IMG/VR virus record: IMGVR_UViG_3300031454_000003
Span: 1 to 61,736 of that record
Origin: a virus
Direction: 5' to 3' (one strand)
Length of the DNA stretch: 61,736 nt
Positions 26,165 through 61,405 of this stretch are shown one piece after another. Positions within the stretch are counted from its first letter, which is position 1, and every line of letters starts with the position of its first letter. The position numbers and the translations under genes are program-made. The notes below the pieces were generated by a model. It did no database searches. It worked only from the letters and a program-made list of their open reading frames with translations, and was not told the DNA's origin.

Positions 26165-26186
26165 CAATTTGCCGTGCTAGACAGCA

Positions 26187-27769: not shown

Positions 27770-27791
27770 TGCAGACCTCCGCGTCTGTCGT

Positions 27792-27836
27792 GCCAGGGCG
27801 GTGTTGAAGCACCGAGTCCCTGGCTTTATTGTATCA
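27792..27836 (-). promoter_or_regulatory. private HNH promoter (TGaTACAAT) plus nested leader hairpin, abutting the helicase stop
   Basis: GCCAGGG ACTC GGTG cttcaa CACC G CCCTGGC, followed by GGAGGT and ATG. Confidence 0.55.
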
Positions 27837-29333
27837 CCTCCAGGACGCATTTTGTACCTCCTTACGCTTCGCATACGCAATGTTTCGGCTTCTGATAAAA
27901 CCGTTGACTTCCTTGCTAGGTGGCGTCGGGTGAGCTAGGCGCACGTCAGCCGTAGCCGGTTCCTTAAACTTTTGTAGATACATATTTAATATCCAGCCGT
28001 CAGACTTACTTTTTGTAGCAGCGTAGTAAAGCAAACCGCCATAGAAGGCGCGCTTATCGGTGAAGGCGTAAAGGTTGCGACGTGTTTTCGGTTTGACCTC
28101 GGTAAGGTCGGCGTCAATACGTGCGCCCGGTTCGTACTCAGCTTCTTTCTTCTGCGGGATAGCGCCGCAATTCGGGCACTTCGCAGCAGGCTTGTAAACG
28201 TGAGCGCACTCTCTACACGTCACGTCTTTGGGCTTTTTCTTAAGCTCTTCTTCTCTTTCGGTTTGCGGGTCAACGTCGCCGGATATGTCCCAAGTCACAG
28301 GGTCACTTACAAAATCGCCATGCCTGTGAATGTTAAAGCCAAGATCAAGCACAACGCAGTCCGTTTTGCCCCGGTAGGAGCGAAGGCCGCGCCCGACGAT
28401 CTGTATCCAGGTCGTCAAGCTTTTCGTTTCCCGCTCTACTATCACGCATGAGATGGCGGGACAGTCGAAACCGCGCCCGAGCACTCCGTAGTTGCAAATT
28501 ATCTTCAGATCGCCACATGCAATAGCCTCAAAAGCTGCTTGACGTTCGTGCTGAGGGGTATTGCTATCTATATGGAAAGACGGTATGCCCGCCTCGTTGA
28601 ACAGTTCGGCGTTACGTCTGCTTGTTGCCACGTTAGGGCCGAACAGCACCGTAGGGCGTCCCTCTGCGAAAGTCTGCCAGTGTTTGACGACACCGCCGAT
28701 CAGGGTTAGCTTCTCAAACGCCGCTGCCTGTGACGCTTCGGTGTAGTCGCCGCCGGAGAGTTTTAGCAGTTCGCTGTCTGACTCTTTGACGCTGAAGTAA
28801 CGCGGGCGTACTAGGTAGCCTTCGCGTATCAGGGACTCGCAAGAAGGGCCGCGTGCCATAGCTGTGTAAACGTCTGTAGGCTTTGGCGTAGCGGTCAAGC
28901 CGACTTCGTAAGCGTTAGGCCAACGCGCCCGGATAGCTGCCCACATGCCGGTATCCTTTGAAGCTTCGTGCGCTTCGTCGGTGATGATCAAATCGGGCTC
29001 GAGCCAGTCCAGGTAAGCAAGACGGCTGTAAACGGTGTGTACTGAAGCAACCTGTACCGGCGCGTCCGTGCGGTAGGTGTTGCCCGCCATGAGTACCGCT
29101 GCGTCGATGCCTAGAGCCGTGTAGGAGTCTAAAGCCTGCTTGACTAGGGTGCGGCCTGAGACGATGAATAAAACCCGTTTGCCTTTACGGACGGCACTCT
29201 CGACGATGTGCGCGCTAGTTCGAGTCTTGCCTGAACCTGTTGCGCTCTGCATGATGACTTTGCGGTGACTTTGTGACAGCAGCCGTCTTGTCTGGTCGAT
29301 CAGTACCTGCTGATACGGCCTCAGAGAAATCAT
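27834..29333 (-). CDS. SF2 (DEAH-type) helicase with a C-terminal zinc ribbon
   Basis: MQSATGSGKT (Walker A), ITDEAHEAS (DEAH box), CRECAHVYKPAAKCPNCG. Confidence 0.85.
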   Translation of the reverse strand: MISLRPYQQVLIDQTRRLLSQSHRKVIMQSATGSGKTRTSAHIVESAVRKGKRVLFIVSGRTLVKQALDSYTALGIDAAVLMAGNTYRTDAPVQVASVHTVYSRLAYLDWLEPDLIITDEAHEASKDTGMWAAIRARWPNAYEVGLTATPKPTDVYTAMARGPSCESLIREGYLVRPRYFSVKESDSELLKLSGGDYTEASQAAAFEKLTLIGGVVKHWQTFAEGRPTVLFGPNVATSRRNAELFNEAGIPSFHIDSNTPQHERQAAFEAIACGDLKIICNYGVLGRGFDCPAISCVIVERETKSLTTWIQIVGRGLRSYRGKTDCVVLDLGFNIHRHGDFVSDPVTWDISGDVDPQTEREEELKKKPKDVTCRECAHVYKPAAKCPNCGAIPQKKEAEYEPGARIDADLTEVKPKTRRNLYAFTDKRAFYGGLLYYAATKSKSDGWILNMYLQKFKEPATADVRLAHPTPPSKEVNGFIRSRNIAYAKRKEVQNASWR

Positions 29334-38899: not shown

Positions 38900-38913
38900 T
38901 CTAGTAATGTCAA
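38887..38913 (-). promoter_or_regulatory. divergent early promoter candidate: TTGACA-15-TATAAG (or -17-TAAGCT), interlocked with the repressor promoter
   Basis: The perfect TTGACA is the complement of 38908..38913, inside the first repressor codons. Confidence 0.4.
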
Positions 38914-39782
38914 TTGCCCACATTACTACCATGATATCTTCACCCTTAATGAAGGTTTGGGCAACAGCTAATGTCAAAACCGCCAAGACTCTTGGTGAAT
39001 TGCTTACGGCGAAACGGTCTGATTATGAAGGTACGCCTGAACAGTTCGACCAGTATGTTGTGGCAGACGCTATTGGCTTTAGCCAGCCTTACGTGAGCCA
39101 AATAGAGAAAGGACATGCCGAAAACCGAGTTCGCAAGTGGCCTTCCAAAAAACAACAGGCTCTACTCGAGGCTTATAAATTCACGACCGAAGAGATTGCA
39201 GAGATCGGCGAGAAGTTTAACCTTGACCTCCCCGGCGTGACCGCCACCGCAACCTTCAGACAACCCGCCGGGCGTTTTCAGGCCACGGCGGAGATCGGCG
39301 CACCCCCGGAGAACACCACCACCCTCGAGGCCACCCGGCGTTTCGAGGTACAAGATACTCACATCACCTTTCGGGTCTACGCGGGTATTTCTGCCGGTCA
39401 TGAAGAAGCGGAGCCTATAGAGGGTGAGGCGTTTAGTATCCCAAGTGCTGACCTGTCAGGCATTGACCCGGTGTGCGTGCGCGTCTACCGCGTCAACGGC
39501 GATTGCATGGTGAGTGAGTCTGCGCGCGGCCTCACTATGAACATCTGTAGCGGTGACAAGATCGCGGTAGATATATCCCAGCGGATCGTCAACAACAACG
39601 ACGTGATAGCGGCCTACTGGCGACCGGGTGACAAGCTCGTGGTCAAACGCTACGTGGAGGCGGGCGACCATATCGTGCTTAAACCGACCTCACCGACCCA
39701 CCCGCCGTTGATAGCCCAGAACAACGATGATTTTGAGATTATCGGCAAAGTAGTATGGCGTGGCGGCCCTTTCCGCGCTTAG
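38907..39782 (+). CDS. LexA/CI-type repressor (XRE HTH plus S24 peptidase)
   Basis: HTH VADAIGFSQPYVSQIEKG. LexA-like cleavage region FRVYAGISAG. Catalytic region VNGDCM ... VVKR. Confidence 0.85.
   Translation: MSIAHITTMISSPLMKVWATANVKTAKTLGELLTAKRSDYEGTPEQFDQYVVADAIGFSQPYVSQIEKGHAENRVRKWPSKKQQALLEAYKFTTEEIAEIGEKFNLDLPGVTATATFRQPAGRFQATAEIGAPPENTTTLEATRRFEVQDTHITFRVYAGISAGHEEAEPIEGEAFSIPSADLSGIDPVCVRVYRVNGDCMVSESARGLTMNICSGDKIAVDISQRIVNNNDVIAAYWRPGDKLVVKRYVEAGDHIVLKPTSPTHPPLIAQNNDDFEIIGKVVWRGGPFRA
39240..39356 (+). repeat. repressor-linker copy of the ATFRQPA(P/G)R..AE(V/I)G repeat shared with the tail fibre
   Basis: TATATFRQPAGRFQATAEIG, then the degenerate TTTLEATRRFEVQ. About 80 percent nt identity to the fibre repeat on the opposite strand. 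Confidence 0.7.
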
Positions 39783-39803
39783 TTATCCACAGGCTTATCC
39801 ACA
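39783..39803 (+). promoter_or_regulatory. two perfect DnaA-box 9-mers (TTATCCACA) between the repressor stop and the lipoprotein SD
   Basis: gTTATCCACAggcTTATCCACAggagg. Confidence 0.6.
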
Positions 39804-39812
39804 GGAGGCAAT

Positions 39813-40418
39813 ATGAAACACATCCGCACCGCTTTACCCTTCGTCCTTACTTTGCTACTCGCTGCCTGCGGCGGCAACGGCCAGACGCCGACCCCGCCCG
39901 CACCGCCGGTAGAGCAGCCCGTACCACCTGTTGTCACGCCACCCGTCACACCTGCCCCGCCTGTAACTCCGCCTACTGAACCGCCCGCGCCGCCTAGCAT
40001 TCCTTACTACGGTGAGTGGGCTTGGAGTTTTACCTTAAACGAAGGTTGCTGTAACGAAGAAGGCCGCTATAGCATCGTCCAAGTACGCGACGTTGACCCG
40101 GCTGGCAGCGGCTTTGGGTTTTATCAAACCTGTTATCAGGGCGACTGTTACGACTCACTCGAGGGCGGGGCCATCATGGGACCGGGTGAAGACAACACTC
40201 TTACGATTACGTTGTTTCAAGTCGATAGCGCGGGCGATTTCGTAGCTATTTACGAAGCTACCGATGATGACGGTGGGCTAACTAAAGACGAGCAAGGTAG
40301 AGATGTTTTCGAGGGTGACGGTCAATATTTCGACCCGAATTATGACGATGGTGATGAGCGCGGCACGTTCAAAGCCATACTTACGGACTTCCCGGTAGCT
40401 TTCCCGCCTGCCCAATAA
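39813..40418 (+). CDS. lipoprotein with a Pro-rich linker (moron or lysogenic-conversion candidate)
   Basis: Signal peptide plus lipobox MKHIRTALPFVLTLLLAAC. Confidence 0.7.
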   Translation: MKHIRTALPFVLTLLLAACGGNGQTPTPPAPPVEQPVPPVVTPPVTPAPPVTPPTEPPAPPSIPYYGEWAWSFTLNEGCCNEEGRYSIVQVRDVDPAGSGFGFYQTCYQGDCYDSLEGGAIMGPGEDNTLTITLFQVDSAGDFVAIYEATDDDGGLTKDEQGRDVFEGDGQYFDPNYDDGDERGTFKAILTDFPVAFPPAQ

Positions 40419-40421
40419 AAG

Positions 40422-40488
40422 TTATCCACAGGTTATCCACAGCCCCCATGCCCATCCCCGCCGCTGCTTATCTACAGCCCCCATGCCC
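40422..40488 (+). promoter_or_regulatory. two perfect and one 8/9 DnaA boxes, within a 21-bp direct repeat
   Basis: TTATCCACA at 40422 and 40433, TTATCTACA at 40468. TTATC(C/T)ACAGCCCCCATGCCC occurs twice. Confidence 0.6.
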
Positions 40489-40520
40489 GAAGACCCCGAC
40501 ACCGACCTCGAGCGCCTAGG

Positions 40521-41000
40521 CTACGGGCGTTTATTGCCTAAACTTTTCCCCTGCTGGTAGCGAGCGTAGACAAAGACCCCGGCGAGCGATCCGAGAGCGG
40601 TGATGATGCCAGCCAGACCCAATAGCCCGTGCCCATCCCTGATGAGTCCTACACTCCACCAGATCGTAAGAATAGCGATAGCCGCAGCAGTTATTGTTCC
40701 CATCCAACTCTGAACGATATCGGAGCCGATACGCCATGACTCAACACGCCGCCGATGCCTCCCCTGCTGCCGAACATCCTCGTACATCCCCTGCGCCATA
40801 CCTGGGACAATCTCGTCATAGCGGGCAAGTGTTTCGGGATCCGGCAGCGGGCCTGAATGGAACGACCCATAAATCTGTGTTGGTTGCTCTAAACCGAGCA
40901 TCCCCTGAGGGGCTTGCCTGGCCTCAAGGCGTGCTTGTCGCTCTGCGTTCTGGCGTTCTAAAGCTTCTTGAGTTCTTTTCGAGCGAGATTTACGACCCAC
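40521..41000 (-). CDS. DUF2335-like membrane protein
   Basis: GSFHSGPLPDPETLARYDEIVPGMAQ followed by two TM helices. Confidence 0.55.
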   Translation of the reverse strand: MGRKSRSKRTQEALERQNAERQARLEARQAPQGMLGLEQPTQIYGSFHSGPLPDPETLARYDEIVPGMAQGMYEDVRQQGRHRRRVESWRIGSDIVQSWMGTITAAAIAILTIWWSVGLIRDGHGLLGLAGIITALGSLAGVFVYARYQQGKSLGNKRP

Positions 41001-41005
41001 CCGGC

Positions 41006-41272
41006 TTATTTAGAAACAACCACACGGTGGGGCTTGGTGACTCTCGCTCTTTCCGCCAAGGCCACCGTGGGTTTCGCCTGATTCATCACGGTTCTGAGAT
41101 CATGGCCGACCATTTGCCAGTCCGAGGCGATGGCGTATGCGTCGGCTTCCTCGGGCGTCCTGCTCACGTTATAGCGATCAAAGGTGCCGAAAAGATCGAG
41201 GACGCGTGCAATACCGGAAATGAATGTCGGTTTGGCAAACAGAATGTCGGTACGCGGTTTGGTCTCGTCCAT
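41006..41272 (-). CDS. hypothetical protein (short form of track ORF 41006..41569)
   Basis: MDETKPRTDILFAKPTFISGIARVLDLFGTFDRYN... Confidence 0.45.
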   Translation of the reverse strand: MDETKPRTDILFAKPTFISGIARVLDLFGTFDRYNVSRTPEEADAYAIASDWQMVGHDLRTVMNQAKPTVALAERARVTKPHRVVVSK

Positions 41273-41455
41273 GTCAACCCCTTTAGTCAGACAACTATAG
41301 CAGATGCTCGCGCGATGTTTGCCGGGGTCAGTTACAGATTTCAAGACCCAGACCCCCTCGAGCCCTGGCTCATCCCCGAACAGGAGTGGGTGCTGATCCC
41401 GGTCATGCCTGTAGAGCCGGACGAAGAGCCGAAGCCGGAGGGCGACTGAGAAACC

Positions 41456-42787
41456 ATGTCTCAACTTGCTACCAAAGCAACCCCCGCCGCCTTCTTGGGC
41501 CGAGTCTCCACACAAAATCAAGCAAAACTCGACAAGCAAGGGTTGCCTGAACAGCGCCGCGCTGCCCAAGCTTACGCTGAAGCGAATGATTTTGAGATTG
41601 TCGCAACATTTGAAGATGTGATTTCCGGGGCGTCGGAAGCGCGCCCCGCTTTTTACGAGATGCTGTCACGGTCTTACGAGTTCAAGGCCGTGATCGTTTC
41701 GCATACCGACCGGCTGGCTCGTGACCTCGAGCTGGGCCTGAGACATATGCGCCTCATCCGTGAGGCGGGTCTCGAGCTGCACAGCGCCGCGCGGGGGCTT
41801 GTAGAAAAGGGCATCGTCTCCGGCGTCGATATGCTCTTAGGTGAACACGAGAAAGAGCGGATCAAAGAGCGGACGCAAAACGGTTTGATAGCAGAGGCTC
41901 GGGACGGTAAATTGCCGAACGGTCTCCACCTTTTTGGCTACCACAACGTACCGGGACAAAACCGAGGTGTGATCAACCCGGACGCAGCCGCTGTCGTACG
42001 GCGCGTCTTCGACCTTGGGGCGCAGGGTCTCAGCTACCGCGCCATTGCACGTGTGATGATGGCGACGCGCGCCCTTACACCGCTCGGTAAAGAGAGCTGG
42101 TATCAGCACACCGTCCGGCGCATGATCTGTAACACCGCCTATAAGGGTGAGTTCGTTTGGACACACAAACGCGGCGGTCGCTTTGTGCTGCCTGTGCCAG
42201 CTATCGTGTCAGCCGAAGAGTGGGCAAAAGCGCAGCGCCACAAGCGCGGCCCGCCTGTACAGGTGCCGCTCCCCTTATCAGGTCGGCTCCGGTGCGGTCG
42301 GTGCGGTGCGGCGATGGGCGTGCGGAAAGTTGACCGGGGCGGCAAGCACGTCTACCTCTACTACCGCTGTGGCAGCGCAGGAACCCCGAGCGGCGCGTGC
42401 GGCGTGGGGCTCGTCAGGCGCGACAAGCTCGAGCCTAAAGCCGAAATCCTCTTACGCGACACGTTGCAACATCCTGACCTGTTACGGGACCTCACGCGCC
42501 CTGACACAGAGCGAGACCAGCACGAGCAGCGCCGCCTTGACGACTTAGGCGAAAGAGCGGAGCGGGTGAAAGAGATGCGTTTAGATGGACTCTACAGCCG
42601 CGAAGAAGCGCGGATAAAAGTAGCGGAAATCGACGCCGAACGACGTGCGCTAACGCAGCAAGACGACACCGAATTTCCCCTCGAGGAGTTTGCCCTGGCA
42701 GCCCGTGAAATGCCTTTTGCCGAGCTTTTAGAGCTTACACAACCGACGTTTTACGTGCAGGGCGACGTTCTTACGCTGGAGTTTTGA
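41456..42787 (+). CDS. int: large serine recombinase (integrase)
   Basis: N-terminal resolvase domain FLGRVSTQNQ, recombinase domain, and Cys-rich zinc ribbon CGRCGAAM...YYRCG. Confidence 0.9.
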   Translation: MSQLATKATPAAFLGRVSTQNQAKLDKQGLPEQRRAAQAYAEANDFEIVATFEDVISGASEARPAFYEMLSRSYEFKAVIVSHTDRLARDLELGLRHMRLIREAGLELHSAARGLVEKGIVSGVDMLLGEHEKERIKERTQNGLIAEARDGKLPNGLHLFGYHNVPGQNRGVINPDAAAVVRRVFDLGAQGLSYRAIARVMMATRALTPLGKESWYQHTVRRMICNTAYKGEFVWTHKRGGRFVLPVPAIVSAEEWAKAQRHKRGPPVQVPLPLSGRLRCGRCGAAMGVRKVDRGGKHVYLYYRCGSAGTPSGACGVGLVRRDKLEPKAEILLRDTLQHPDLLRDLTRPDTERDQHEQRRLDDLGERAERVKEMRLDGLYSREEARIKVAEIDAERRALTQQDDTEFPLEEFALAAREMPFAELLELTQPTFYVQGDVLTLEF

Positions 42788-49680: not shown

Positions 49681-50172
49681 TCACTGTCCGGCCCTGCGTT
49701 TCAGCTCCGCGTCTCTCGAGGCTTTGAGTTGTTCGCTCGTCAGGGCTTTTTTAGTAGCGTTACGCGACGCCTCGAGTGCGATCTTTGCCGCTTCCGGCCC
49801 GACCATTGCTGCAAAGTTAGCGGGAAAACCTGCCGCCACAAGCGCTGCTGTAAGTGCGGGCGGGATGATGGTATTGACCGCACCCTCAAGGACTTTTCGG
49901 GCTACTTTTGTCCCGGCGAAAGGAACGCTGCCGGTAGTGTCAGCGGCGCGAACGGCTTTAGCCAGCACCTCACGCTGCTCTTTAATTTGTTCGGCGGTAG
50001 CGGGGCTGTAGATTAGCCCCCGGAGTAGCAAGGTAAAGGCGCTCACCGCTGCGATAATCGCCGCCGCTTGCTCCGGCGAAATGAGATCGAAACCGAAGGC
50101 CGCCACGAGTGCTAAAAGACTCTGTACAGTCCCGACAATAATCGCCGGTTCTTGCTTGAGTAGATTTTTCAT
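49681..50172 (-). CDS. membrane protein, holin-like by position
   Basis: Hydrophobic segments IIVGTVQSLLALVAAFGF and AAIIAAVSAFTLLL. SD GGAGG. Confidence 0.4.
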   Translation of the reverse strand: MKNLLKQEPAIIVGTVQSLLALVAAFGFDLISPEQAAAIIAAVSAFTLLLRGLIYSPATAEQIKEQREVLAKAVRAADTTGSVPFAGTKVARKVLEGAVNTIIPPALTAALVAAGFPANFAAMVGPEAAKIALEASRNATKKALTSEQLKASRDAELKRRAGQ

Positions 50173-50189
50173 TGTGCCTCCAAAAAGAT

Positions 50190-50211
50190 ACTCGGGTATC
50201 ACTACCCGAGT
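50190..50211 (-). promoter_or_regulatory. leader hairpin ahead of the holin-like gene
   Basis: ACTCGGGTA gtga TACCCGAGT, perfect 9-bp stem. Confidence 0.45.
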
Positions 50212-50622: not shown

Positions 50623-51216
50623 ATGACAATTTTACCCCTTTCTAAAACTTGCGTACATTGTGATAACGAGTTTCCGGCTACCGCTGAGTATTTTCACCGC
50701 GATAAAAAACGTGAGGGTGGACTTTATCCGCGTTGCAAAGTTTGTAAGTACATAGCGACGCGAAACCTAACAACCGCACAACGTTTTGGGCAATCCGTAA
50801 ATAAAACGTCAGATTGTTGGTTATGGACAGATCGGCTTAAAGACAACGGCTATGCAACATTTACATGGAAAGGCGTCGGGCATTATGTGCACCGTTATAG
50901 CTATGGACTACACTATGGAAAATTTGACACAACCTTACAGGTTTTACATACATGCGATGTCCGAAATTGCGTTAATCCTGAACATCTCTTCCTTGGCACA
51001 ATTGCGGACAATATGGCTGACAAAGTGGCTAAAGGTAGACAGCGGCGGGGTGTAGCACATCTAATGGCAAAGCTTACGGAAGAGGATGTAACGAAGATTC
51101 GGCATGCCTACGCCGAGAAACGTTACAGCCAGAGCCAACTAGGTAAGCAATTCGGTGTTACCCAAACTTGTATCGGGGCGATTGTGAGACGGAAAACTTG
51201 GTCTCATATTATGTGA
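50623..51216 (+). CDS. HNH endonuclease, family B
   Basis: CWLWTDRLKDNGYATF..HRYSYGLHYG..HTCDVRNCVNPEHLFLGTIADN and a C-terminal HTH. Confidence 0.8.
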   Translation: MTILPLSKTCVHCDNEFPATAEYFHRDKKREGGLYPRCKVCKYIATRNLTTAQRFGQSVNKTSDCWLWTDRLKDNGYATFTWKGVGHYVHRYSYGLHYGKFDTTLQVLHTCDVRNCVNPEHLFLGTIADNMADKVAKGRQRRGVAHLMAKLTEEDVTKIRHAYAEKRYSQSQLGKQFGVTQTCIGAIVRRKTWSHIM

Positions 51217-51631
51217 GCCAAATATCTTCGGCGGTTCCAATTAAAGCCGGATATTTTGCGTCAATATCCATCAGTTCCAAATGAGGCCAGTCCCAATCCC
51301 ACAGCTGCCCGCCGCTAACGAGTCCATAACGGCGCGGGTCGCACAGGGTGTAGGCTGCTTTGTAAGCAAGGTCTGACCAGTCAATTTGTCCAGTTACGGT
51401 ATTTAGTAGAGCTATATCTATAGCCCTGCCGAGTAAGTGGTTTGAGTGCATCGTTTTTGATGCGCCTTTAGCTTTTAGAAACTCTTGGCGTTCTTTACTG
51501 CGCCGCGTCTCGGTAACGATAATTTTGTAGTTTGGTAGGCGCTTTTGCAACGCTGCCAGATAGACGGTGAAAAGCCCCAGATAATCAGCGTCCAGGGCTT
51601 CCAGATCTCTATTCTGTTCAGGTTCTATCAT
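51209..51631 (-). CDS. M15-family (VanY / L-Ala-D-Glu peptidase-like) endolysin
   Basis: ETRRSKERQEFL..SNHLLGRAIDIAL. ATGA-coupled. Confidence 0.75.
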   Translation of the reverse strand: MIEPEQNRDLEALDADYLGLFTVYLAALQKRLPNYKIIVTETRRSKERQEFLKAKGASKTMHSNHLLGRAIDIALLNTVTGQIDWSDLAYKAAYTLCDPRRYGLVSGGQLWDWDWPHLELMDIDAKYPALIGTAEDIWLT

Positions 51632-52878
51632 CGGCTCGCTCCCAAAATCACGCTCACGGCGGGCGCTATAAAGTCGCCGTCGTGTAGCCGTTCGGAGACG
51701 TTCACAATCTCCCCCGTTTCATCCCAACGTGCAAGCAGGGCATACCCTCGGGTTTTCCACTCCCAGCCCGTGCCGCGTGGTTCGGCGGGCGGATTGAAGT
51801 GCGTCACCTTACCCAGCAGCGGATAGTACAGATCGCCCCCGGTATCGCCGGAGCAGTTGCTTGACAACAGGCCTACGGCTTTACCGTCGAGCATATTGTC
51901 CGTGACCGTGTTAGCGAACCGCTGCATATCCTCCTCGGTCAAGACGCCCTCGAGTCCCAGGTCAGCCACAGCATTCAGAGTTTCGCCCGAGTAAGAGCAC
52001 TTCTGAAATATCCAGCCGTAGTTACCGACAGCCCGGTAGCTGTTGACTATGTGCGGCCAGACATATGAGCTGCCCTTTACCATCAGCTCTTTTCGCACGA
52101 CGCGGATCAGCCGGTCACGTTCGGTGTGATACTTCGCTTCGCCCGTCAGATCGCCCAGATAGTGCATGAGCTGAACCGAGTTCGTAAACGGGTGAAACAG
52201 GTCTTTTTCGATAAACGGGAATCCGGTCGGCTTGTTGCTGCGTTTGCGCCACTTCGCCTCGAACTCGTTTACGAGGTAGTCAATCCAGAAGTCGGCAGCC
52301 TCGGCATACTCCGGCACGTCCCGGTTCACGTCAAACAGGCGAGCCGCCAGCGCCACCATAGAGTGCGCCATGATTTCTTCCATAGTCGTTGTGTCTTTGT
52401 TGTGCAGCTTCAGATCGTTAGGATTGTAGTAGAGCCAGCCCCGAAAGCCGTCGCCGGTGTTTGCCTTCAGTGTTGCCCGCGCAAACTGCATAACCTCGTA
52501 AACGCGCCTCACGAGCGCGCCGTCACCTGTAACCCGAAAGGCAGAGATGACCTGCTCGAGCTGCAAATTCGCGTGACGGCTCATGTCGTTCAGCCGTCCC
52601 GACTTACCCAGCGCGTCAAGGTCGTACTCTTCACGAGTGCCACCGGGCGCGTAGACTTTGCACGCCTTGAGACGCCCTAGCCACAGCTTCTGCGTATCAG
52701 TGAGGGGTACGTCTCGAATCTTCAGCGACGGCGCCCGCGGGTCTACTGTAGGCGTAATGGGCGTCGGTTCCGGCGTCACCTCCACAACTACCTCATCTGG
52801 CAACATCAGGATTTCAGCCCGCAACGCTGCGGTGTGAGACTCGATAACGGCAACGCTTGCGAGCATGTCGTTTTTCAT
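51628..52878 (-). CDS. large hypothetical protein (416 aa), helical-repeat-like
   Basis: ATGA-coupled on both sides, directly upstream of the endolysin. Confidence 0.6.
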   Translation of the reverse strand: MKNDMLASVAVIESHTAALRAEILMLPDEVVVEVTPEPTPITPTVDPRAPSLKIRDVPLTDTQKLWLGRLKACKVYAPGGTREEYDLDALGKSGRLNDMSRHANLQLEQVISAFRVTGDGALVRRVYEVMQFARATLKANTGDGFRGWLYYNPNDLKLHNKDTTTMEEIMAHSMVALAARLFDVNRDVPEYAEAADFWIDYLVNEFEAKWRKRSNKPTGFPFIEKDLFHPFTNSVQLMHYLGDLTGEAKYHTERDRLIRVVRKELMVKGSSYVWPHIVNSYRAVGNYGWIFQKCSYSGETLNAVADLGLEGVLTEEDMQRFANTVTDNMLDGKAVGLLSSNCSGDTGGDLYYPLLGKVTHFNPPAEPRGTGWEWKTRGYALLARWDETGEIVNVSERLHDGDFIAPAVSVILGASR

Positions 52879-53165
52879 AGTGCATCCAAACGCCGATATT
52901 TTTCTTCGTCGGTATGACCATCCCAAGTGCGTCCCGCATCACGTGCTAGATGTGAATAAAGGTGCAAGTCGTCTAGCGCGATATGCCAGCTAACTTGTCC
53001 GGTTGGCAAGTCGATAAAGCAGACATTGCGCCAATCATCCTCCCAGTCCTCGCCAACATGCTGCTCGATGCTGCTTGGGTATAGCTTGGACAATGCCGCC
53101 ACTAAATGCGCTCGTTCGGTATAAACAGAATTACTCACAGTCTTTCCCCTTTCATCTCGGTTCAT
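52875..53165 (-). CDS. small WDGH-motif protein
   Basis: GQVSWHIALDDLHLYSHL..TWDGHTDEEKYRRL. ATGA-coupled. Confidence 0.5.
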   Translation of the reverse strand: MNRDERGKTVSNSVYTERAHLVAALSKLYPSSIEQHVGEDWEDDWRNVCFIDLPTGQVSWHIALDDLHLYSHLARDAGRTWDGHTDEEKYRRLDAL

Positions 53166-54739
53166 GGCATCCTCTTTTCGTACAGCAACAAGCTCACCCA
53201 CGACGCCTTCCGGTTCTCTCTACCCGAGTCCGGGCGGGCGTTGAGGGCGTGCAGGGTATCGACGAACTCAGGCCGGTCGGTTGCAAACGCCGAGCCGAGT
53301 GTGGCGAGCCCGCGTGAGATTTGGAACACGTCTTCAGTCACGGTCGCCCTCGTTTGCAGCGGCCCACAGGGATAGGTCTTACCCCGGTATGAGACGACCC
53401 GCTGACCGTTATTCGACAGCGGCCCGTTACCCCCGACAGTCGCCGCAATCTTGTCACCCGCGCCCTGAAACATGACCACGAGCTGCACCGTACGCGCCCA
53501 CGCTGCCATGTACCGAGCCGTGTAGTGTGGTGCGCCGCTGCGGTGCATGGCCCACTCGTGGGGTACGTCTTTACGCTTGTACGTCGCGTCCTGCATCGCT
53601 GGCCTAGCGGCGTCGAGTACAAAGTGAGGTGCTACCGCAACCTCACCCTCGGGCGTTTGCACGTAGCTCACACCCGCCATAAGCTTGTCTGCCCAGTAGG
53701 TATAAGCCTCGAGGTAGTAATCCTTGCCATGCGTTAGCCAGCGATGCCAGAAAAAGCTAGCCATCGACACGACGGCGTGCCGCAAGTCTTTAACGTAGGC
53801 GTACCAGGGCTGACCTGGTTTCAGCTTCTCGGACAGAAAGCGAAGGCGCGCCTCGAGGTCGTCAGCGTAGGAGCTTACCCGTTCGTACTCCACACCGCCG
53901 CCCGGTTTCAGGATGTACTCGAGTTCGCCGACGGTGCCGAAATGTAGACACCAGTCCAAGTCGTGCCAAAAGTCAAGGTCTAGGTATGGGGGTGCTATCC
54001 CGTCACCCGGAGTGCCGGAGTCGATGAGTTGATAGTTGATTCTTTTAAGGCCAACCTGCTCGAGGTCGTCAACCGTATAGCGCCCTTTTGTAAGCGCCCG
54101 GTTGGCTTTTGCCCCATATCCTGTCGCCATAGTCGCGGGGTTAAAGATGATACCCGCCTGTTTCCGTAACAGCACCTCAGCTTTAGGGTCGCCGTAGTGG
54201 TCAAGCAGCACCTGAAGGCCGTGCGCGATGTAGCCCTGATCGCGCATGTTCTTGAGGTGCATGTGGCCTTCGATCAGCGGCTCATTACTAAAGGGCCGGA
54301 TACCGCGCTCAACCTTGCCGGGGTTGGCTGCCCACTCTCGCTCGAGCCACGCCCAAGAGCCGTCATACGCGGCTTTGGCGCTGCCTGTCAGCTTGCTCGA
54401 GTCGAAGTCCGAGTTGGCCCCATAGAGGGGCCGTGGTTTGCCGCTAGACGCGGCCCAGGTCTTTTTTGCTGCGACCTCGGCGGGCGTCAGTTGCTTAAAC
54501 CTTTCGTAACTTCCCCCCGCCAGCACACGCCACGCCCACGACTCAGCGCGCCACGCCTCTTTGTAAACTGTCTGGTTGGCTACCTCTATTTTTAGAGCGT
54601 CGAGTTCGGCACGCAGCGCCGCAACGTCTACGGGCGGTTGCATGGTTGCCTCTAGCTCGAGTAGTTTTCCTTCCGCGCTGGCAATGTCGGCGCGCGCTCC
54701 GGTCACTAAGTTTTCGGGGTTTGTCGGTTCTGTCGTCAT
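53162..54739 (-). CDS. large hypothetical protein (525 aa) with an N-terminal coiled coil
   Basis: SD AAGGAAA. Trp/Tyr/His-rich helical body, so a possible polysaccharide-active enzyme, but unproven. Confidence 0.6.
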   Translation of the reverse strand: MTTEPTNPENLVTGARADIASAEGKLLELEATMQPPVDVAALRAELDALKIEVANQTVYKEAWRAESWAWRVLAGGSYERFKQLTPAEVAAKKTWAASSGKPRPLYGANSDFDSSKLTGSAKAAYDGSWAWLEREWAANPGKVERGIRPFSNEPLIEGHMHLKNMRDQGYIAHGLQVLLDHYGDPKAEVLLRKQAGIIFNPATMATGYGAKANRALTKGRYTVDDLEQVGLKRINYQLIDSGTPGDGIAPPYLDLDFWHDLDWCLHFGTVGELEYILKPGGGVEYERVSSYADDLEARLRFLSEKLKPGQPWYAYVKDLRHAVVSMASFFWHRWLTHGKDYYLEAYTYWADKLMAGVSYVQTPEGEVAVAPHFVLDAARPAMQDATYKRKDVPHEWAMHRSGAPHYTARYMAAWARTVQLVVMFQGAGDKIAATVGGNGPLSNNGQRVVSYRGKTYPCGPLQTRATVTEDVFQISRGLATLGSAFATDRPEFVDTLHALNARPDSGRENRKASWVSLLLYEKRMP

Positions 54740-54750: not shown

Positions 54751-55398
54751 CTAACTATTCCTTTGGCCTAAAAGGCGGGCGGGGCGACCACGCTCAAGGA
54801 TGGCAGTCTGCACGTTGCCGCCAACGGAGGCGATACCTAGGCTGTATTTTTGAGACTCAGCCGTGAGATCAATAAGCCAACTTGCGAAGTCCGCTGACGC
54901 CGCTAGAGGAAATAGCTCGAGCGTTGGTTTGACCGTGCCGATAATCAGCCGCGCCAGTTCGTCTTTGCCGCCTGTAGCTATCCCCCAAGACGCTTGTGGG
55001 TAAAGTTCTTTCAGCTCGCCGGGTAAGTTGATCTGAAACATGCGTCCGTAAAAGTTTGTGGCGTCGAAACCGGCAACAGTAAGCGCGATGTTGCCGAGCC
55101 CCATCGGCCTAAGTTTGCCGTGCAGATCCTGCGCGATCTCCTCAACGGTTTTACGGACGCCGACCGCTTCACCGTATTCGCGCAGTAGCGAGCCGACCGA
55201 GCGCACGCCCGAGGCGGCTTGGCCGACGAAGCCGACCGCGCAAAAATTGTTAGGTGGCGATAGGATAAAAACCTTCACACCGGAATCGAAGTAGGCCGTA
55301 TCCGGCAGCGGTGTGCCATTTGGTTGAGAAACTGACAAACGTGAATCCGAAGCGATGACTATCGCTTCGGGCGTCTTTACCGAAATTAAAAGTGAGAT
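54751..55398 (-). CDS. HslV/proteasome-beta-like Ntn-hydrolase-fold protein. Proposed ATC start, then Ser1
   Basis: (I)SLLISVKTPEAIVIASDSR.., VGFVGQAASG, ATGGK and SVGGNVQTAIL align with TT.V..K..D.VV.A.D.R, AG..GD, GSGS and SGG of proteasome beta/HslV. AGGAGG lies 5 nt upstream of the ATC. Confidence 0.55.
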   Translation of the reverse strand: MSLLISVKTPEAIVIASDSRLSVSQPNGTPLPDTAYFDSGVKVFILSPPNNFCAVGFVGQAASGVRSVGSLLREYGEAVGVRKTVEEIAQDLHGKLRPMGLGNIALTVAGFDATNFYGRMFQINLPGELKELYPQASWGIATGGKDELARLIIGTVKPTLELFPLAASADFASWLIDLTAESQKYSLGIASVGGNVQTAILERGRPARLLGQRNS

Positions 55399-55413
55399 GA
55401 GTACCTCCTAACT

Positions 55414-55440
55414 AAAAAGCTCTCTGCTTTTGCAGAGAGC
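55414..55440 (-). terminator. intrinsic terminator after the fibre gene, abutting the next SD
   Basis: Sense strand reads GCTCTCTGC aaaa GCAGAGAGC TTTTT, then AGTTAGGAGG. Confidence 0.65.
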
Positions 55441-55462: not shown

Positions 55463-58400
55463 CTACGCACCAAGCAAGGTTTTCACATCCGCCTCCTGAT
55501 CAGCGCCTACTAACCCTCGGCAGATAATCAGCGCAAGGTTCTTTGTCTTTGTGCTCTCAGCGTAGACACCGTTTGCTCTTGGGATTGCACCGATACCGAC
55601 GACGAGGTTTCCCGGATACGTATTGTCACTAACTCGCGCCCTTGCGCCTGCCGGGTCGTAGTAAGACAAGCCCTCTATCCGTTTCTCGGTCGGTTTCCAA
55701 ATGAGCCGGTGAACAGTCTCGGCGGGCACGGGCTTCGCGCCAACATAGATGCTGTTTGTAAAGAAATCGTTGTTACGGATGAGCAAGAAGGGTCGCCCGT
55801 CGGCGTGTCGCCCAAGCTCTCCGGACGCTTGCGCCCGAACACTGTCAGCGAGCGCCACTTGCGCGTTGTATTCAACCGTCTCAGCAGCGGAGATACCCTG
55901 AATCTTGGTGAACACGGTGGTCGGTTCGGTATTGCTGACTCCCGTGTTTATCCGTACGCAAGCGCCGCCACCTTGGGGGTAAACACCTCCGGGTATCTCA
56001 AGTACGTTGCCGATAACTTGCGCTGTGATGGCGAGTGCGGGCGCTGCGTCGTTGACGTACTTTCGAGCACCGTCGTCCCACAAGAAAATACCCACAGCCC
56101 GGTCAGGATGTTCCACAACGTCGTTACCGGGGTCGTACGGCGTAAGCGCGCCCATGTTGCGGCGGCGTTGCAGCGCGCTAAACGAGTAGGGGTGCATGGT
56201 AAGCGTGTGCAGGTGAGCGCGCGCAAGCTCGTACGCGACGCCGTTTGTATCGCGCAACCCGCCGACGATAATCCGCACGGTCGCGTCAGGCCACGCGGGC
56301 CGGTTGAGTTTGATACTGCGCCCGTCGGTGTGGTCGTACAGCACGATCTCGGTCGTGCCGATGTCAAGGATGAGGCGCGGGTGGTCGCCGGTCCAGGTGA
56401 GGGTGTCGGGTGAGGTTACGGTGGTCGTGCCGATAACGGTGCGGAGCTTGAAGCCGCCCTGCACCTTAAGCAGGTGTACCCCGTCTTCGCCCCCGGAGGC
56501 GTCTACTTGCAACATCACGCCATCGTTGGCGGTTTTACTGACCTCACCCCAAATCATGCAGATGATCGCATTGCCGTTCATGCGCTGCGCCTGCGCCGGG
56601 TTATTCAGGGCCAGGGAACGCACCTGAGAACCGTACACGCCGGTCGAAAGGATGCCCTTAAAGCGGATGTCAGGCCGCGCTAGACCTTCCCACAGCAAAG
56701 CGTTGTTGTTGCCCGAGCTGTCGGTAAGTATCGTGGTTGGGTTTTTGTTCACGGGGTCGTTGGCGTAAATCACGAGGGTAGGGTTCGGCATGATGGCGGG
56801 TCCGGCGGCGACCTCCACAACCGCGCTGAAGGTATCGCGCACGTCTGCCAGCACCGAACCAGGCGTGTCGGCTCCAGCGGCTTTAATCTCAACAAGCATG
56901 GTGTAGGCGGCTTCAACCGTCCCAGTCGGCGCGGTGACGGTAACGCGCCAGAGGTCAAGGTTTCCGGTCTGTGAAATGAGTGCAGCGGTAGCGGTAAGTC
57001 CTTCGCCCATCGTCACGGTCATCGTCAGGTTGCCCGCGTAACCACCGACCCGGCGCACATTAAAGTCAACCGTCAGCGACTCACCCGGTGCAAGGTCGAG
57101 TGATTTTGTGTCGGTGCGTGAAAGTGCAAGGGAGAAGTCGGGCGGCATAACGGCCCAACTCAGGTCCGGTTCATTTAGGTCGGCGTAGCCCCGGCGGGTC
57201 AGGGTCTCGGCTTCGGTCTCGTCAAAGTAGCGCGGCGCAAAGACCGGCTCACCGATGAACCCCGCTACCGCGAGGCCGTCGCTCCGTACACCCGCCGTCA
57301 GCAATGGTTCAGTAAGCGCCTGCAATGGCGCAGGCAATGGTGCGCTTACTATTGACGAGCCGTTATCACTCGTGACGTTCAGCCGTGCGTACGCACCCCG
57401 CCACGCCAGCAGCGCCGAAAACTTCTGCACGCTGAGACGCGGCAGCTTCACCGCCATCTGAACGTCGCCGACCCTGCCGTAGATGTAATCTATCCCTTCG
57501 CCCAGCCTCGCGTAGATCGCTGCGCCTGACGTTTGTCCGTAGGCGTCAACGGGCGGCCCGACCGACACCAGGCCCCACGTGCCGTCGGCGGTTATGTAAG
57601 CGTCAACCTTCAGCGTGCCTTTGCTCACATCTTTCGCTAGCAGCGGAGCCCGGATGCTGCCCGCCGGGTCAAAACCGTAGATCGGGCGCTCGGGAGTGCT
57701 GCTCTCGGTCGGTAAGGCAAGGTTAAGCGTGCCGAGGTCAAGAAAGGGGTGCTGCGGATCGGGGCCGGTCGGGAACAAAGTCAGCTCGAGCTTGTCGTCA
57801 TAAGGTCTACCGACAAAGGCAACGTACTCGAGTCCTATCACGTCGCCGTCCGGTAGCCACAGCTCGCGTACGTCGGGCAAAAGCCGCTTCATCCGGTCGC
57901 CGTCGCGCCGGGGGTCGTCTCGGTCTATCAGAAGCGCAGTGATAGGCTTGGTCTCCGGCAAACGCGAGCGCAGACCCGCTTCTGCAAACCACGCGCCCGG
58001 AAGGTCGGACTCGCCCGCGATACCTGTTCGGACGCCGCCGAGGGTGGTATCAAACCCCGCCGAAAAGCGCAGCACTTCGCCCGACTCGGTAACGAAAGCG
58101 TGCGTGTCGGCGTCGGACATCTCGAACGAAAAAGGGGTGTTAGCGCTTGAACTGGCTATCGTCGCCGTCAGCTGCAAACGCGGGGCGGGCTGCCTGAAGG
58201 TGGCGGTCGCGGAGCGTGGCGCGGGGGTACCAACCTCGGCCTCGGCGTAGAAACGTGGGGCGCTCTGTCTAAAGGTAGCGGCAGCAGTCGTTAAATTGCC
58301 GACTTCTGCTTGAGCTATAAGGCGCGGGGCTGGTTGCCTAAAGGTAGCTGCTGCGTCAACGCCCTGAGGTGTAGTAACGCTCAGGGTTGCCGCGCCGCCA

Positions 58401-58879
58401 CCTTCTATAGATTTGTGGGTTGTTTTACCACCCACGAGGTCGGGTGCTTTCCTGATGATGACGACAATTGAGCCGCCCTTGACCCAACCCGGCTTGTTGA
58501 CCTGCTCTTGTAACGCGGGTGCGATGTTGTAAGTACGCAAGCCGTTCGGGGCGTTTGCCGGGACTACATGCGTTCCGATGGCGGTAGTACAAGCGGTCGT
58601 CCGCATTGCAGGCGCGTCCAGAGGAAACGTCGGATTTATGGCAGCGAAGAGACGCAGGTCGTAATTAGAGTCGAAGGTCGTAGCAGCGGTCATCTCAAGC
58701 GTAAACGTTGCGGCGTTTACCACTGCACCTTGCGAGACCTGAATATCGGGGAACTCGATGGCGCTATAGGCGTCTTGAGAACTCGCGTTACCAAAATAAA
58801 GGATGGTCGCGGTGGCGTCGTAAACGCCACCGGCGTAACTATAGGCGTCTTTGGTCGCGGTACGCGTAATGGTGGGCAT
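55463..58879 (-). CDS. large tail fibre / host-recognition protein (1138 aa)
   Basis: Size and position. The N-terminus looks like a DNRLRE-type domain (ATILYFGNASSQDAYSAIEFPDIQVSQGAVVNAATFTLEM). Contains an internal triple repeat. Confidence 0.65.
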   Translation of the reverse strand: MPTITRTATKDAYSYAGGVYDATATILYFGNASSQDAYSAIEFPDIQVSQGAVVNAATFTLEMTAATTFDSNYDLRLFAAINPTFPLDAPAMRTTACTTAIGTHVVPANAPNGLRTYNIAPALQEQVNKPGWVKGGSIVVIIRKAPDLVGGKTTHKSIEGGGAATLSVTTPQGVDAAATFRQPAPRLIAQAEVGNLTTAAATFRQSAPRFYAEAEVGTPAPRSATATFRQPAPRLQLTATIASSSANTPFSFEMSDADTHAFVTESGEVLRFSAGFDTTLGGVRTGIAGESDLPGAWFAEAGLRSRLPETKPITALLIDRDDPRRDGDRMKRLLPDVRELWLPDGDVIGLEYVAFVGRPYDDKLELTLFPTGPDPQHPFLDLGTLNLALPTESSTPERPIYGFDPAGSIRAPLLAKDVSKGTLKVDAYITADGTWGLVSVGPPVDAYGQTSGAAIYARLGEGIDYIYGRVGDVQMAVKLPRLSVQKFSALLAWRGAYARLNVTSDNGSSIVSAPLPAPLQALTEPLLTAGVRSDGLAVAGFIGEPVFAPRYFDETEAETLTRRGYADLNEPDLSWAVMPPDFSLALSRTDTKSLDLAPGESLTVDFNVRRVGGYAGNLTMTVTMGEGLTATAALISQTGNLDLWRVTVTAPTGTVEAAYTMLVEIKAAGADTPGSVLADVRDTFSAVVEVAAGPAIMPNPTLVIYANDPVNKNPTTILTDSSGNNNALLWEGLARPDIRFKGILSTGVYGSQVRSLALNNPAQAQRMNGNAIICMIWGEVSKTANDGVMLQVDASGGEDGVHLLKVQGGFKLRTVIGTTTVTSPDTLTWTGDHPRLILDIGTTEIVLYDHTDGRSIKLNRPAWPDATVRIIVGGLRDTNGVAYELARAHLHTLTMHPYSFSALQRRRNMGALTPYDPGNDVVEHPDRAVGIFLWDDGARKYVNDAAPALAITAQVIGNVLEIPGGVYPQGGGACVRINTGVSNTEPTTVFTKIQGISAAETVEYNAQVALADSVRAQASGELGRHADGRPFLLIRNNDFFTNSIYVGAKPVPAETVHRLIWKPTEKRIEGLSYYDPAGARARVSDNTYPGNLVVGIGAIPRANGVYAESTKTKNLALIICRGLVGADQEADVKTLLGA
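58160..58354 (-). repeat. three tandem ATFRQ(P/S)APR(L/F)..A(E/T)(V/I)(G/A) units in the fibre
   Basis: AAATFRQPAPRLIAQAEVG / AAATFRQSAPRFYAEAEVG / ATATFRQPAPRLQLTATIA. Confidence 0.8.
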
Positions 58880-60796: not shown

Positions 60797-61405
60797 TTAA
60801 AAAAGCCTCCCTGCAAAATCAAGGGGGCTTCTAGCGTGCTTACTCAAATTGCATGTAGGGCAACTGCACACTAGATTCTCTGGGCCGTTAGAACCGCCTT
60901 TTGAAAGTGCTACAACATGGTCAACGTGGTACTTACCCTTGCCGGACTTCTTGAGCTTGGCTCCACACCACCAGCACATGCCTTTTTGGGCATCAAACTG
61001 CCTAGCCACATCCTCGGCGGTATGTGTGCCTTGAGCGCCGCGCTTAAGTGCCTGCCTTTTTCTTTGATAAGCTGCATCTTTGTCAAGGTTTGCTTTTCTC
61101 CAAGCTGTTTTTCTTCCTGGGTTTTCTTCACACCACCTTGCAGTACGCGCCCTTGCTTCTGCGGCATGGGTGGCGCTATACTCCCTATTTTTTTCTATAA
61201 ACCTTGTGCGATTGGCTGCGTAATGTATTTTCGCTTTGTGTCTATTTTCCGCGCGATTGGCTAGGTAGTGTTCTCTCTGATACTCCTTAACGCAAACTCT
61301 ACAGTGTGATGATAAACCACTTTTAGACCGAGAGTATTTAAGAAATTCCGATGGGGGTTTCTTTTCCTTGCACTTATTACAACATTTCAGCGATAAACTA
61401 TCCAT
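60797..61405 (-). CDS. HNH endonuclease, family A
   Basis: QKGMCWWCGAKLKKSGKGKYHVDHVVALSKGGSNGPENLVCSCPTCNLSKHARSPLDFAGRLF. Confidence 0.85.
   Translation of the reverse strand: MDSLSLKCCNKCKEKKPPSEFLKYSRSKSGLSSHCRVCVKEYQREHYLANRAENRHKAKIHYAANRTRFIEKNREYSATHAAEARARTARWCEENPGRKTAWRKANLDKDAAYQRKRQALKRGAQGTHTAEDVARQFDAQKGMCWWCGAKLKKSGKGKYHVDHVVALSKGGSNGPENLVCSCPTCNLSKHARSPLDFAGRLF

Follow-up and report, generated by a model that had tools for sequence, protein, structure and literature searches.

The IMG/VR virus record IMGVR_UViG_3300031454_000003, analyzed here over its whole length of 61,736 nucleotides (the window, in whose coordinates positions are given), carries on its minus strand at 54751-55398 a gene whose product is almost certainly a proteasome-like N-terminal nucleophile (Ntn) protein, and which is very probably translated from an ATC codon lying 20 codons upstream of the annotated TTG start. 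On balance, we favor the view that this product is a Ser1-dependent Ntn hydrolase, made in low abundance and acting independently of ATP on a specific bond, late in infection. An earlier note, drawn up from the DNA letters alone, had described the gene as encoding an HslV/proteasome-beta-like protein with a Ser1 nucleophile and an ATC start, and on re-reading the window DNA its coordinates and sequence statements for this region were all correct. Residues are numbered below from the predicted Ser1, except where the 215-codon numbering is named, which counts the ATC codon as residue 1 (S2, D18, K42, G59).

Searched on its own, the window protein matches nothing in Pfam, PHROGs, NCBIfam, PADLOC or, by phmmer, the sequences of the PDB; in Pfam nothing emerged even at E<=10, and the gathering score of the proteasome model PF00227 was not reached. 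For this model, with its cut-off of 22.4 bits, the relatives reach scores of 12-22 bits; distant members match both PF00227 and TIGR03634 below threshold and in the correct register, and some bear precomputed PF00227 matches or source names such as '20S proteasome alpha/beta subunit'. As single-sequence searches came back empty, the family is revealed only by profiles and structure. Searching 1.8 billion cluster representatives with a profile of 12 close sequences brought up 417 proteins at E<=1e-3; the matches are mostly 210-290 aa long and aligned from residue 1, with 96 of the 160 retrieved sequences beginning with Met-Ser and 28 with Met-Thr. A 50-sequence profile (A2) gave 222 matches to PDB sequences (best E 2.3e-7), with proteasome subunits making up 60 of 60 among the matches listed and alpha subunits being matched almost as well as beta subunits. 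Likewise, HHalign comparison of a 122-sequence alignment (A5) with the beta subunit of Thermoplasma acidophilum returned a probability of 96.3% (E 1.5e-9), as against 1.1% with Escherichia coli HslV; the T. acidophilum query agrees with the PDB alignment segments.

Structure prediction points in the same direction. The AlphaFold2 model, run on the monomer, reached a pLDDT of 68.9 with a shallow alignment and of 92.5 (pTM 0.89) with A5, and is a four-layer alpha-beta-beta-alpha sandwich with the strand and helix order of the proteasome (H1 at 68-78, H2 at 85-99), as in peptidase family T1 of the Ntn-hydrolase clan. Foldseek returned 827 PDB matches at E<=1e-3, of which the best 50 consist only of 20S beta and alpha subunits, T. 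acidophilum beta (TM 0.68-0.72) among them, and Anbu (5nyw, E 6.5e-8); the shallow model had given the same picture of proteasome subunits and Anbu. In BFVD, where about a dozen viral (phage) proteins have a proteasome-like fold, the best match of the shallow model was 'Proteasome beta type-2 subunit [Siphoviridae sp. ct3o911]' (TM 0.81). The Foldseek, profile and HHalign matches to proteasome beta, together with the likeness of the model to proteasome-type Ntn hydrolases, thus bear out the proteasome-beta-like fold postulated earlier, whereas its likeness to HslV does not hold. HslV (ClpQ) has the Ntn fold and a Thr1 that is likewise exposed by simple Met removal, but it is shorter (about 175 aa against 214) and is absent from the best 50 Foldseek matches, and we reject membership in the HslV family on the HHalign probability of 1% and on the absence of any detectable HslU or other AAA+ gene from the 61.7-kb genome.

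At its 5' end the frame reads TAG (55410-55408) GAG GTA CTC ATC (55398-55396) TCA CTT TTA ATT TCG GTA AAG ... CGT TTG (55338-55336). As read earlier, the ATC stands 5 nt after AGGAGG, an in-frame TAG lies upstream, and ATG, GTG and TTG are absent in frame from TAG 55410 down to TTG 55338. The extended product is (I/fM)SLLISVKTPEAIVIASDSRLS..., which puts Ser at residue 1 and Asp at residue 17 after the initiator, again as the earlier note had it; with the initiator, the N-terminus reads I-S-L-L-I-S-V-K-T-P-E-A-I-V-I-A-S-D-S-R-L-S. The public gene call (P0001, 195 aa, TTG start) removes the nucleophile region. A propeptide made from a start further upstream is excluded in the window by the in-frame TAG three codons before the ATC.

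The close family comprises 11 relatives (L001-L011), 50-99% identical, all of them from metagenome assemblies that derive from a few metagenome projects; the DNA was compared for every one, and gene calls in their loci are simple longest-open-reading-frame (ORF) calls. The full-length relatives begin M-S-L-x-[IV]-x-[VIL]-K-[TS]-P-E-[AG]-[IL]-[VI]-x-x-[ST]-D-S-R-L-S, colinear with the 20 extra codons of the window, and this N-terminal stretch is open and conserved in all 11, with many synonymous codon changes. At the start position the window, L003 and L004 have ATC, L002 and L006 have TTG, L005 and L007-L011 have GTG, and L001 has GTT, while ATG is found there neither in the window nor in any of the 11 relatives. 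In the five loci of the window clade (the window, L002, L003, L004 and L006), AGGAG or GGAG lies 5-6 nt upstream of ATC and TTG starts alike. The whole-gene ratio of nonsynonymous to synonymous substitution rates (dN/dS) is 0.08-0.2 in pairs with a finite estimate, the sole exception being the near-identical L010-L011 pair at 0.39. Between the ATC-start genes it is 0.12 (window-L003), 0.16 (window-L004) and 0.12 (L003-L004) at dS of about 0.8-1.1, and these low values indicate that the ATC-start genes are functional rather than decaying. A pseudogene or a sequencing error at the start is ruled out by the presence of ATC in three diverged assemblies with a dN/dS of about 0.12-0.16 among them. 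Thus, the occurrence of ATC at one and the same codon in three diverged phages, each time preceded by a Shine-Dalgarno (SD) sequence, together with the conservation of the N-terminus, supports the proposed translation from ATC 55398 in place of the annotated TTG, which we consider very probable on these comparisons of sequence.

The converse, namely that the public annotation is right, that translation starts at TTG 55338 to give a 195-aa protein without strand S1 and the nucleophile, and that the 60 nt upstream are untranslated, appears highly improbable. This TTG is indeed the first canonical start in the frame, gene callers made a TTG-type call for both the window and L001, and ATC is a poor initiator. 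However, all relatives keep the protein sequence encoded by the 20 upstream codons and show synonymous changes in them; L002 and L005-L011 carry a canonical GTG or TTG exactly at the position of the window's ATC; AGGAGG stands 5 nt before the ATC, and no SD-like purine run precedes the TTG; and the truncation would delete core-sheet strand S1, half of S2 (thus taking that strand in part) and the invariant D-S-R. Gene callers restricted to ATG, GTG and TTG cut off the catalytic N-terminus and so hide the enzyme from automatic annotation: 5 of the 11 database entries of the Ntn family, this genome's among them, have it truncated.

ATG makes up about 65% of the SD-supported starts in the window genome by a rough count, and set against this figure its complete absence from the start position of the Ntn family makes weak initiation look selected. 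Because the loci are related to one another, however, this avoidance of ATG is no more than suggestive of such selection. Translation table 11 counts ATC among its alternative initiators. In L002, an in-frame ATG lies four codons before the TTG start (6779-6793 of that locus, M-E-P-P-L-S-L-L...) and is used by the database entry P0285 (218 aa); if this ATG were used, the release of Ser1 would need removal of a 5-residue propeptide.

The core of the catalytic apparatus is conserved. Position 2 of the 215-codon numbering is Ser in 101 and Thr in 19 of the aligned relatives (Ser or Thr in 120 of 120), and D18, S19, R20, D38, K42, G59, G110, G144, G193 and G194 are invariant in the 122-sequence alignment; with the equivalents of D17, S18, R19 and Lys33 all unvarying, the alignment backs the prediction of Ser1 as the nucleophile. 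In the same numbering, Ser2-Asp18 aligns without gaps to Thr1-Glu17 of the T. acidophilum beta subunit, K42 aligns to Lys33 after an insertion of about 9-12 residues where the model is at its least confident, and G193-G194 align to G170-G171 ('GGxIDVAVIT' in both families); T142-G143-G144 matches G128-S129-G130, and V192-G193-G194 matches S169-G170-G171. The invariant G59, which like Gly47 stands at the end of strand S4, falls opposite G47, G48 or G50 depending on the alignment method, as judged from sequence only. Hence, of the motifs assigned earlier, those of the Lys33, SGG and GSGS regions stand, while the register of the 'AGxxGD' loop is ambiguous. The lack of conservation of Asp166, also pointed out before, is seen throughout the family alignment: the positions of Ser129, Asp166 and Ser169 are occupied family-wide by G/D/N, I/V/L and V/C, respectively. 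These three residues are not given as defining ones for the wider family by Fuchs et al. (2021; PMC8665760). Taken together, we regard the protein as probably, but by no means certainly, catalytically active.

Among characterized proteins, the 20S beta subunit (T. acidophilum PsmB, PDB 1PMA/3C91) is the best match in both structure and profile, with the same order of strands and helices. Ser1 and Asp17 correspond without gaps to Thr1 and Glu17, Arg19 and Lys33 align, and 'GGxVQTAIL' of the window protein answers to 'GGMIDVAVIT'. In contrast to the 20S subunit, the window protein has Ser in place of Thr, no propeptide, no alpha-ring partner and the insertion of about 9-12 residues before Lys33, and Ser129, Asp166 and Ser169 are changed to Gly, Ile and Val. 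Anbu (ancestral beta subunit; PDB 5NYW; Foldseek E 6.5e-8, TM 0.67) is similarly a bacterial proteasome homolog without an unfoldase. It has Thr1 and a long C-terminal helix, and its operon includes ATP-grasp, alpha-E and transglutaminase genes; none of these partner genes was found among the window proteins scanned with Pfam or PHROGs. BPH (Betaproteobacteria proteasome homolog; PDB 5OVS) resembles the window protein in having a precedent for the Ser1 nucleophile, no propeptide and no HslU-type partner, but it descends from HslV, whereas the window family carries no HslV signal and BPH is not among the best 50 Foldseek matches. The Ser1 precedent invoked in the earlier note is genuine, the BPH paper giving Ser-1 in all BPH outside Betaproteobacteria. 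Connectase, a protein ligase of archaea, is described (PMC7980362) as a proteasome homolog that acts as a monomeric, sequence-specific enzyme on one partner protein, and by analogy we propose it as a working model for the window enzyme, although it lacks H1 and H2, has a two-helix S3/S4 insertion and is archaeal only.

Phage-encoded proteasome homologs are not unusual in themselves, contrary to what had been supposed: Fuchs, Alva and Lupas (2021; PMC8665760) delineated 22 families in all, five of which (PPH, AAH, CPH, PMI-4 and DAH) have phage members, and to these can be added the dozen or so viral proteins in BFVD. Like the window protein, their homologs have no propeptide, no AAA+ partner and no assigned function and occur in phages and prophages, and they share with the window family Ser1/Thr1, Asp17, Lys33, the sheet core and helices H1-H4, and probably Gly47, for which window G59 is the candidate equivalent in an ambiguous register. 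Their PMI and Firmicute (FC) clusters belong to 'group II', whose profile, like that of the window family, matches both alpha and beta subunits, and the bacterial relatives of about 270 aa described below share an H3/H4 insertion with PMI-2 to PMI-6. Membership in PPH was considered and discarded, as PPH proteins are about 140 aa long and without H2, and the window protein has 214 aa and H2. The accessions of our Bacillus and Clostridium relatives differ from the published representatives of the clusters. Fuchs et al. found no informative gene context for the new homologs; the tail-to-lysis position and the toxin-module context reported here set the present family apart in this respect.

The position of the gene recurs in its phage and prophage relatives. 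It comes after the fiber gene in the window, L002, L003 and L006, and L004, which is cut just upstream, has the same junction sequence. In the other clade, in L007-L011 (Amidase_2) and the more distant L092 (M15), the Ntn start lies directly at the stop of the endolysin gene (TAG-GTG), these endolysins being non-orthologous, and in L001 a GH108 endolysin gene is directly upstream. The L001 Ntn frame overlaps the end of that gene (stop TAA). The genes following Ntn in L010 resemble membrane and lipoprotein lysis factors. Distant Firmicute relatives, of about 216-221 aa and 22-25% identical to the window protein, are found in Bacillus cereus-group prophages in the order Dit, 1569-aa tail protein, Ntn, Phage_holin_4_1, Amidase_3/CBD_PlyG and prophage end. 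The same tail-Ntn-holin-endolysin order is seen in at least 6 other IMG/VR contigs (from loci L097-L108), in which both the holins (Holin_SPP1, holin_4_1) and the endolysins (Amidase_2, GH25, Amidase_3, M15) vary. This recurrence with non-orthologous holins and endolysins indicates that very distant phages have conserved the same slot, with the last tail gene on one side and the lysis cassette on the other; the location between tail and lysis genes, earlier taken for an oddity, is instead a recurrent feature of the phage-borne relatives. The family is present in prophages and metagenomes. A tblastn search with the window protein, P0012, P0120 and P0225 gave no match in 50,697 deposited phage genomes, and no relative emerged when IMG/VR and the GTDB representative genomes were scanned for patterns based on the close-family alignment (A1).

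A second context emerges from the relatives of about 270 aa with the H3/H4 insertion, which occur in at least 214 species genomes of Acidobacteriota, Chloroflexota, Bacteroidota, Spirochaetota, Desulfobacterota, Methanobacterium and others. We examined 80 loci from GTDB species genomes (L012-L091), in most of which the Ntn gene lies at about 8001-8820 of the locus. It is followed on the same strand by a small ORF, D1, mostly of 60-120 aa, in 74 of the 80 loci, and by a second ORF, D2, in 66. Among 41 D2 products scanned, 32 are classical type II toxins, namely PemK/MazF (15), Fic/Doc (6), ParE (5) and ParE_like (1), PIN (2), YoeB (1), YafQ (1) and Gp49/HigB (1). Thus about 40% of the 80 bacterial relatives (at least 32) are directly upstream of a pair comprising a small protein and a toxin. 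Of the 74 D1 proteins, 35 share the motif [ST]xx[DN]W[LI]xxxxG at the N-terminus, with a strand after it, and the D1 C-termini track the toxin type. Known antitoxin families do not account for D1, only 1 of 32 matching a Pfam antitoxin model. The whole looks like an undescribed three-gene toxin-antitoxin (TA) architecture led by a proteasome homolog; in the literature searched, we found no paper linking proteasome homologs to toxin-antitoxin or lysis modules. These bacterial cousins hint that control of a lethal effector via a small partner may be common to the family. A D1-type partner was also sought in the phage loci by a regular-expression scan, and was rejected, as the matches were only chance-like.

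At 61.7 kb and 55.5% G+C, the window is a complete genome of siphovirus-like type, and the serine integrase and S24 repressor that it encodes show the phage to be temperate. Further products are a primase, Rad52, Dam and an SF2 helicase. The large terminase has 49% identity to its counterparts in Thermobifida and Streptomyces phages, and when 24 kb of the window were compared with deposited phages by megablast, nothing matched. Walker-A and family scans detected no AAA+ unfoldase in the genome: the only genuine Walker A is that of the terminase, a match in the tape measure protein being due to chance, and the only other NTPase found is the SF2 helicase, so that the absence of an ATPase partner asserted in the earlier note is borne out. 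The hairpin upstream of the gene (Table 1) has a 9-bp stem with 6 G-C pairs, an AAAA loop and a T5 tail, with a fold z-score of -3.6, and L003 and L006 have hairpins like it; no sigma-70-like promoter could be made out in the stretch from this hairpin to the Ntn gene.

Table 1. Coordinates of the Ntn gene, its signals and catalytic codons, and other features of the window (last row: coordinates of the prophage loci)
Feature	Position	Strand	Remarks
Proteasome-beta-like Ntn hydrolase CDS	54754..55398	-	215 codons from ATC; 214 residues after Met removal
Stop codon TAG of Ntn gene	54751-54753	-	
Non-canonical start codon ATC (inferred)	55396..55398	-	codon position compared across L001-L011
Shine-Dalgarno AGGAGG	55404..55409	-	5 nt 5' of ATC; overlaps in-frame TAG 55408-55410
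Hairpin resembling an intrinsic terminator	55414..55440	-	between fiber gene and SD
TTG, start in public annotation (195-aa product)	55336..55338	-	encodes Leu21 of full-length protein
Ser1 codon, predicted N-terminal nucleophile	55393..55395	-	
Asp17 codon (D18 in 215-codon numbering)	55345..55347	-	S18 and R19 next; invariant, 122 sequences
Lys41 codon (K42 in 215-codon numbering), proteasome Lys33 equivalent	55273..55275	-	invariant; aligns to T. acidophilum beta K33
Invariant Gly codon (G59 in 215-codon numbering), end of strand S4	55222..55224	-	probable Gly47 oxyanion-hole equivalent; register uncertain
Tail-fiber-like protein, 1138 aa, upstream neighbor	55463..58879	-	three ATFRQxAPR repeats; no Pfam or PHROG match
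Downstream neighbor, 525-aa protein	53162..54739	-	no Pfam or PHROG match
Endolysin, M15 peptidase type, lysis module	51209..51631	-	
Holin-like protein	49681..50202	-	phrog_9752, E 1.2e-6
S24-peptidase repressor-like protein	38907-39782	+	within plus-strand block 38907-42787
Large serine recombinase/integrase	41456-42787	+	within plus-strand block 38907-42787
HNH endonuclease genes, three, scattered	25405-26187, 27098-27880, 60797-61405		
Ntn gene in L093/L094 (Bacillus prophages)	7001-7657		

Several neighbors deserve mention. The fiber-like protein upstream contains, at 58201-58345 on the minus strand, three tandem copies of A-T-F-R-Q-[PS]-A-P-R-[LF] (residues about 176-236, spaced 23-25 residues apart), which are kept in the L002 fiber and absent from the L001 homolog. 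Proteins with these ATFRQPAPR repeats had been put forward as candidate substrates; we find no support for this and reject the repeats as a co-conserved substrate, as the L001 fiber is without them though L001 carries the Ntn gene. The 525-aa protein downstream has about 135 residues in common with its L003 counterpart (44% identity) and about 80 with that of L004, the remainder being unrelated, a pattern of sequence that suggests a variable, swappable tail protein of the receptor-binding type. Overlapping the end of its gene and the start of a 432-aa gene is a small WDGH-domain protein (PF25311, E 5e-10; 52875-53201, minus strand). The tape measure protein (893-10045, minus strand) has 3050 aa, matches PHROG tape-measure families at E 1e-42 and has a 3029-aa relative in L001; taking the usual figure of about 0.15 nm of tail per residue, the phage would have an exceptionally long tail, of about 450 nm.

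Going by these sequences, ribosomes would initiate with fMet at ATC 55398 behind the strong SD, and deformylase and methionine aminopeptidase (MetAP) would then take off the Met. Its removal is expected because residue 2 is Ser, Met-Ser and Met-Thr being good MetAP substrates, and as there is no propeptide, Ser1 would become the free N-terminal nucleophile, acting in the proteasome-type sandwich with Asp17, Arg19, Lys41 and the Gly of strand S4. The lack of an AAA+ unfoldase, the terminator upstream and the weak start codons together point to small catalytic amounts and to ATP-independent action on a specific bond. The enzyme would thus be a low-copy peptidase, or possibly a connectase-like transpeptidase, directed at a specific peptide or protein bond, and is probably not a bulk degradation machine. 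Of the steps of infection at which it could act, a late one is the most likely, in view of the tail/lysis junction, the adjacency to endolysin stops and the same slot in Firmicute prophages; by analogy with connectase and the toxin-linked cousins, it would process or regulate a tail-completion or lysis factor. Such a lysis- or tail-linked role is offered tentatively, and is the less probable part of our proposal. More speculative still is the notion that the group consists of single-substrate 'trigger' enzymes for lethal modules, in which the phage Ser1 peptidase, kept at trace level by its non-AUG start, might cleave a lysis or tail-completion factor and so set the moment at which infection ends, and the bacterial and archaeal cousins with D1 and the toxin might form a new three-component TA system that carries its own protease.

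A number of observations weigh against this proposal. Initiation at ATC is very weak in model bacteria and poor in E. coli. The start-position codon of L001 (9941-9943) is GTT, which is not a recognized initiator. In that locus AGGTG stands 5 nt before the GTT, with no canonical in-frame start within 26 codons upstream; the GTT could be a genuine odd start, an effect of coupling or re-initiation, or an assembly error. With regard to catalysis, Ser129, Asp166 and Ser169 are replaced by Gly143, Ile189 and Val192 (215-codon numbering), and since these residues position Thr1 in the proteasome, their loss may mean that activity is weak, different or absent. The BPH paper further rates Ser1 a poorer nucleophile than Thr1 in the proteasome. 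As for the role, the window endolysin gene is 3 kb downstream of the Ntn gene rather than adjoining it, the search for D1-like partners in phage loci came up with nothing beyond chance, and none of the new proteasome homologs gave Fuchs et al. (2021; PMC8665760) any hint of its function. Finally, the conserved position is itself no proof of a role in lysis or tail assembly, given the terminator upstream and the fact that the tail-fiber/lysis junction is a classic hot-spot for cargo ('moron') genes.

This last point introduces the main rival, in which the gene is cargo: an active or inactive homolog, made in the prophage or under a control separate from the late operon, that serves the lysogen in defense or counter-defense and has no part in the virion or in lysis. 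The temperate nature of the phage, with its serine integrase and S24 repressor, would fit such a role, as would the strong terminator-like hairpin that separates the gene from the fiber gene, the reputation of the junction as a cargo hot-spot, the defense-like placement of about 40% of the 80 bacterial relatives upstream of small-protein and toxin pairs, and the occurrence of the family in prophages and metagenomes but not in the 50,697 deposited phage genomes. Nevertheless, the stretch between terminator and Ntn gene yielded no sigma-70-like promoter, the Ntn starts of L007-L011 and L092 coincide with the endolysin stop and leave no space for a promoter of their own, neither a toxin nor a D1-like partner gene was found in the phage loci, and PADLOC gave no match. 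We consider cargo an unlikely but serious explanation.

Less probable again is a full-length but non-catalytic protein, serving like the alpha subunits as a scaffold, chaperone or decoy, for instance by aiding tail-fiber assembly. The lost equivalents of Ser129, Asp166 and Ser169, the nearly equal match of profile A2 to alpha subunits, and the two fiber-like genes that flank the Ntn gene in the window clade are consistent with this. On the other hand, S/T2, Asp17, Ser18, Arg19 and the Lys33 equivalent are strictly kept at 20-30% identity, which is hard to explain without catalysis; moreover, the relatives have no N-terminal extension, unlike alpha subunits, and the Ntn gene is away from the fiber gene in 7 related loci. 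A classical self-compartmentalizing bulk protease, forming HslV- or 20S-like rings and borrowing a host AAA+ unfoldase to act on host or phage proteins, can be largely set aside: although the fold and the catalytic core are those of the proteasome, and the window protein lacks the H3/H4 insertion of the 270-aa relatives that Fuchs et al. argued to block double rings, its similarity to HslV is limited to the common fold, no phage-encoded unfoldase was found in the genome, the expression signals indicate low abundance, and Fuchs et al. found no AAA+ partner for the new homolog families.

The preferred reading, a scarce and specific Ser1 hydrolase translated from ATC, places the window protein in known company, since phage-encoded proteasome homologs had been described before and it is a further member of a functionally uncharacterized group. 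What appears to be new is the conserved ATC or other non-ATG start with the mis-annotation that results from it, the conserved tail-to-Ntn-to-lysis synteny, and the toxin-module context of the bacterial branch. The conserved ATC start in a family free of ATG offers a natural case of expression held low by the choice of start codon. Further, none of the homologs newly described by Fuchs et al. (2021) has an assigned function, and the phage copy provides a simple genetic system in which to look for one. The tail-Ntn-lysis order spans unrelated phages, and the order of Ntn, partner and toxin spans many bacterial phyla and Methanobacterium; these recurring contexts, tail-Ntn-holin/endolysin on the one hand and Ntn-small partner-type II toxin on the other, give this branch of the proteasome family its first leads on function that can be put to the test.

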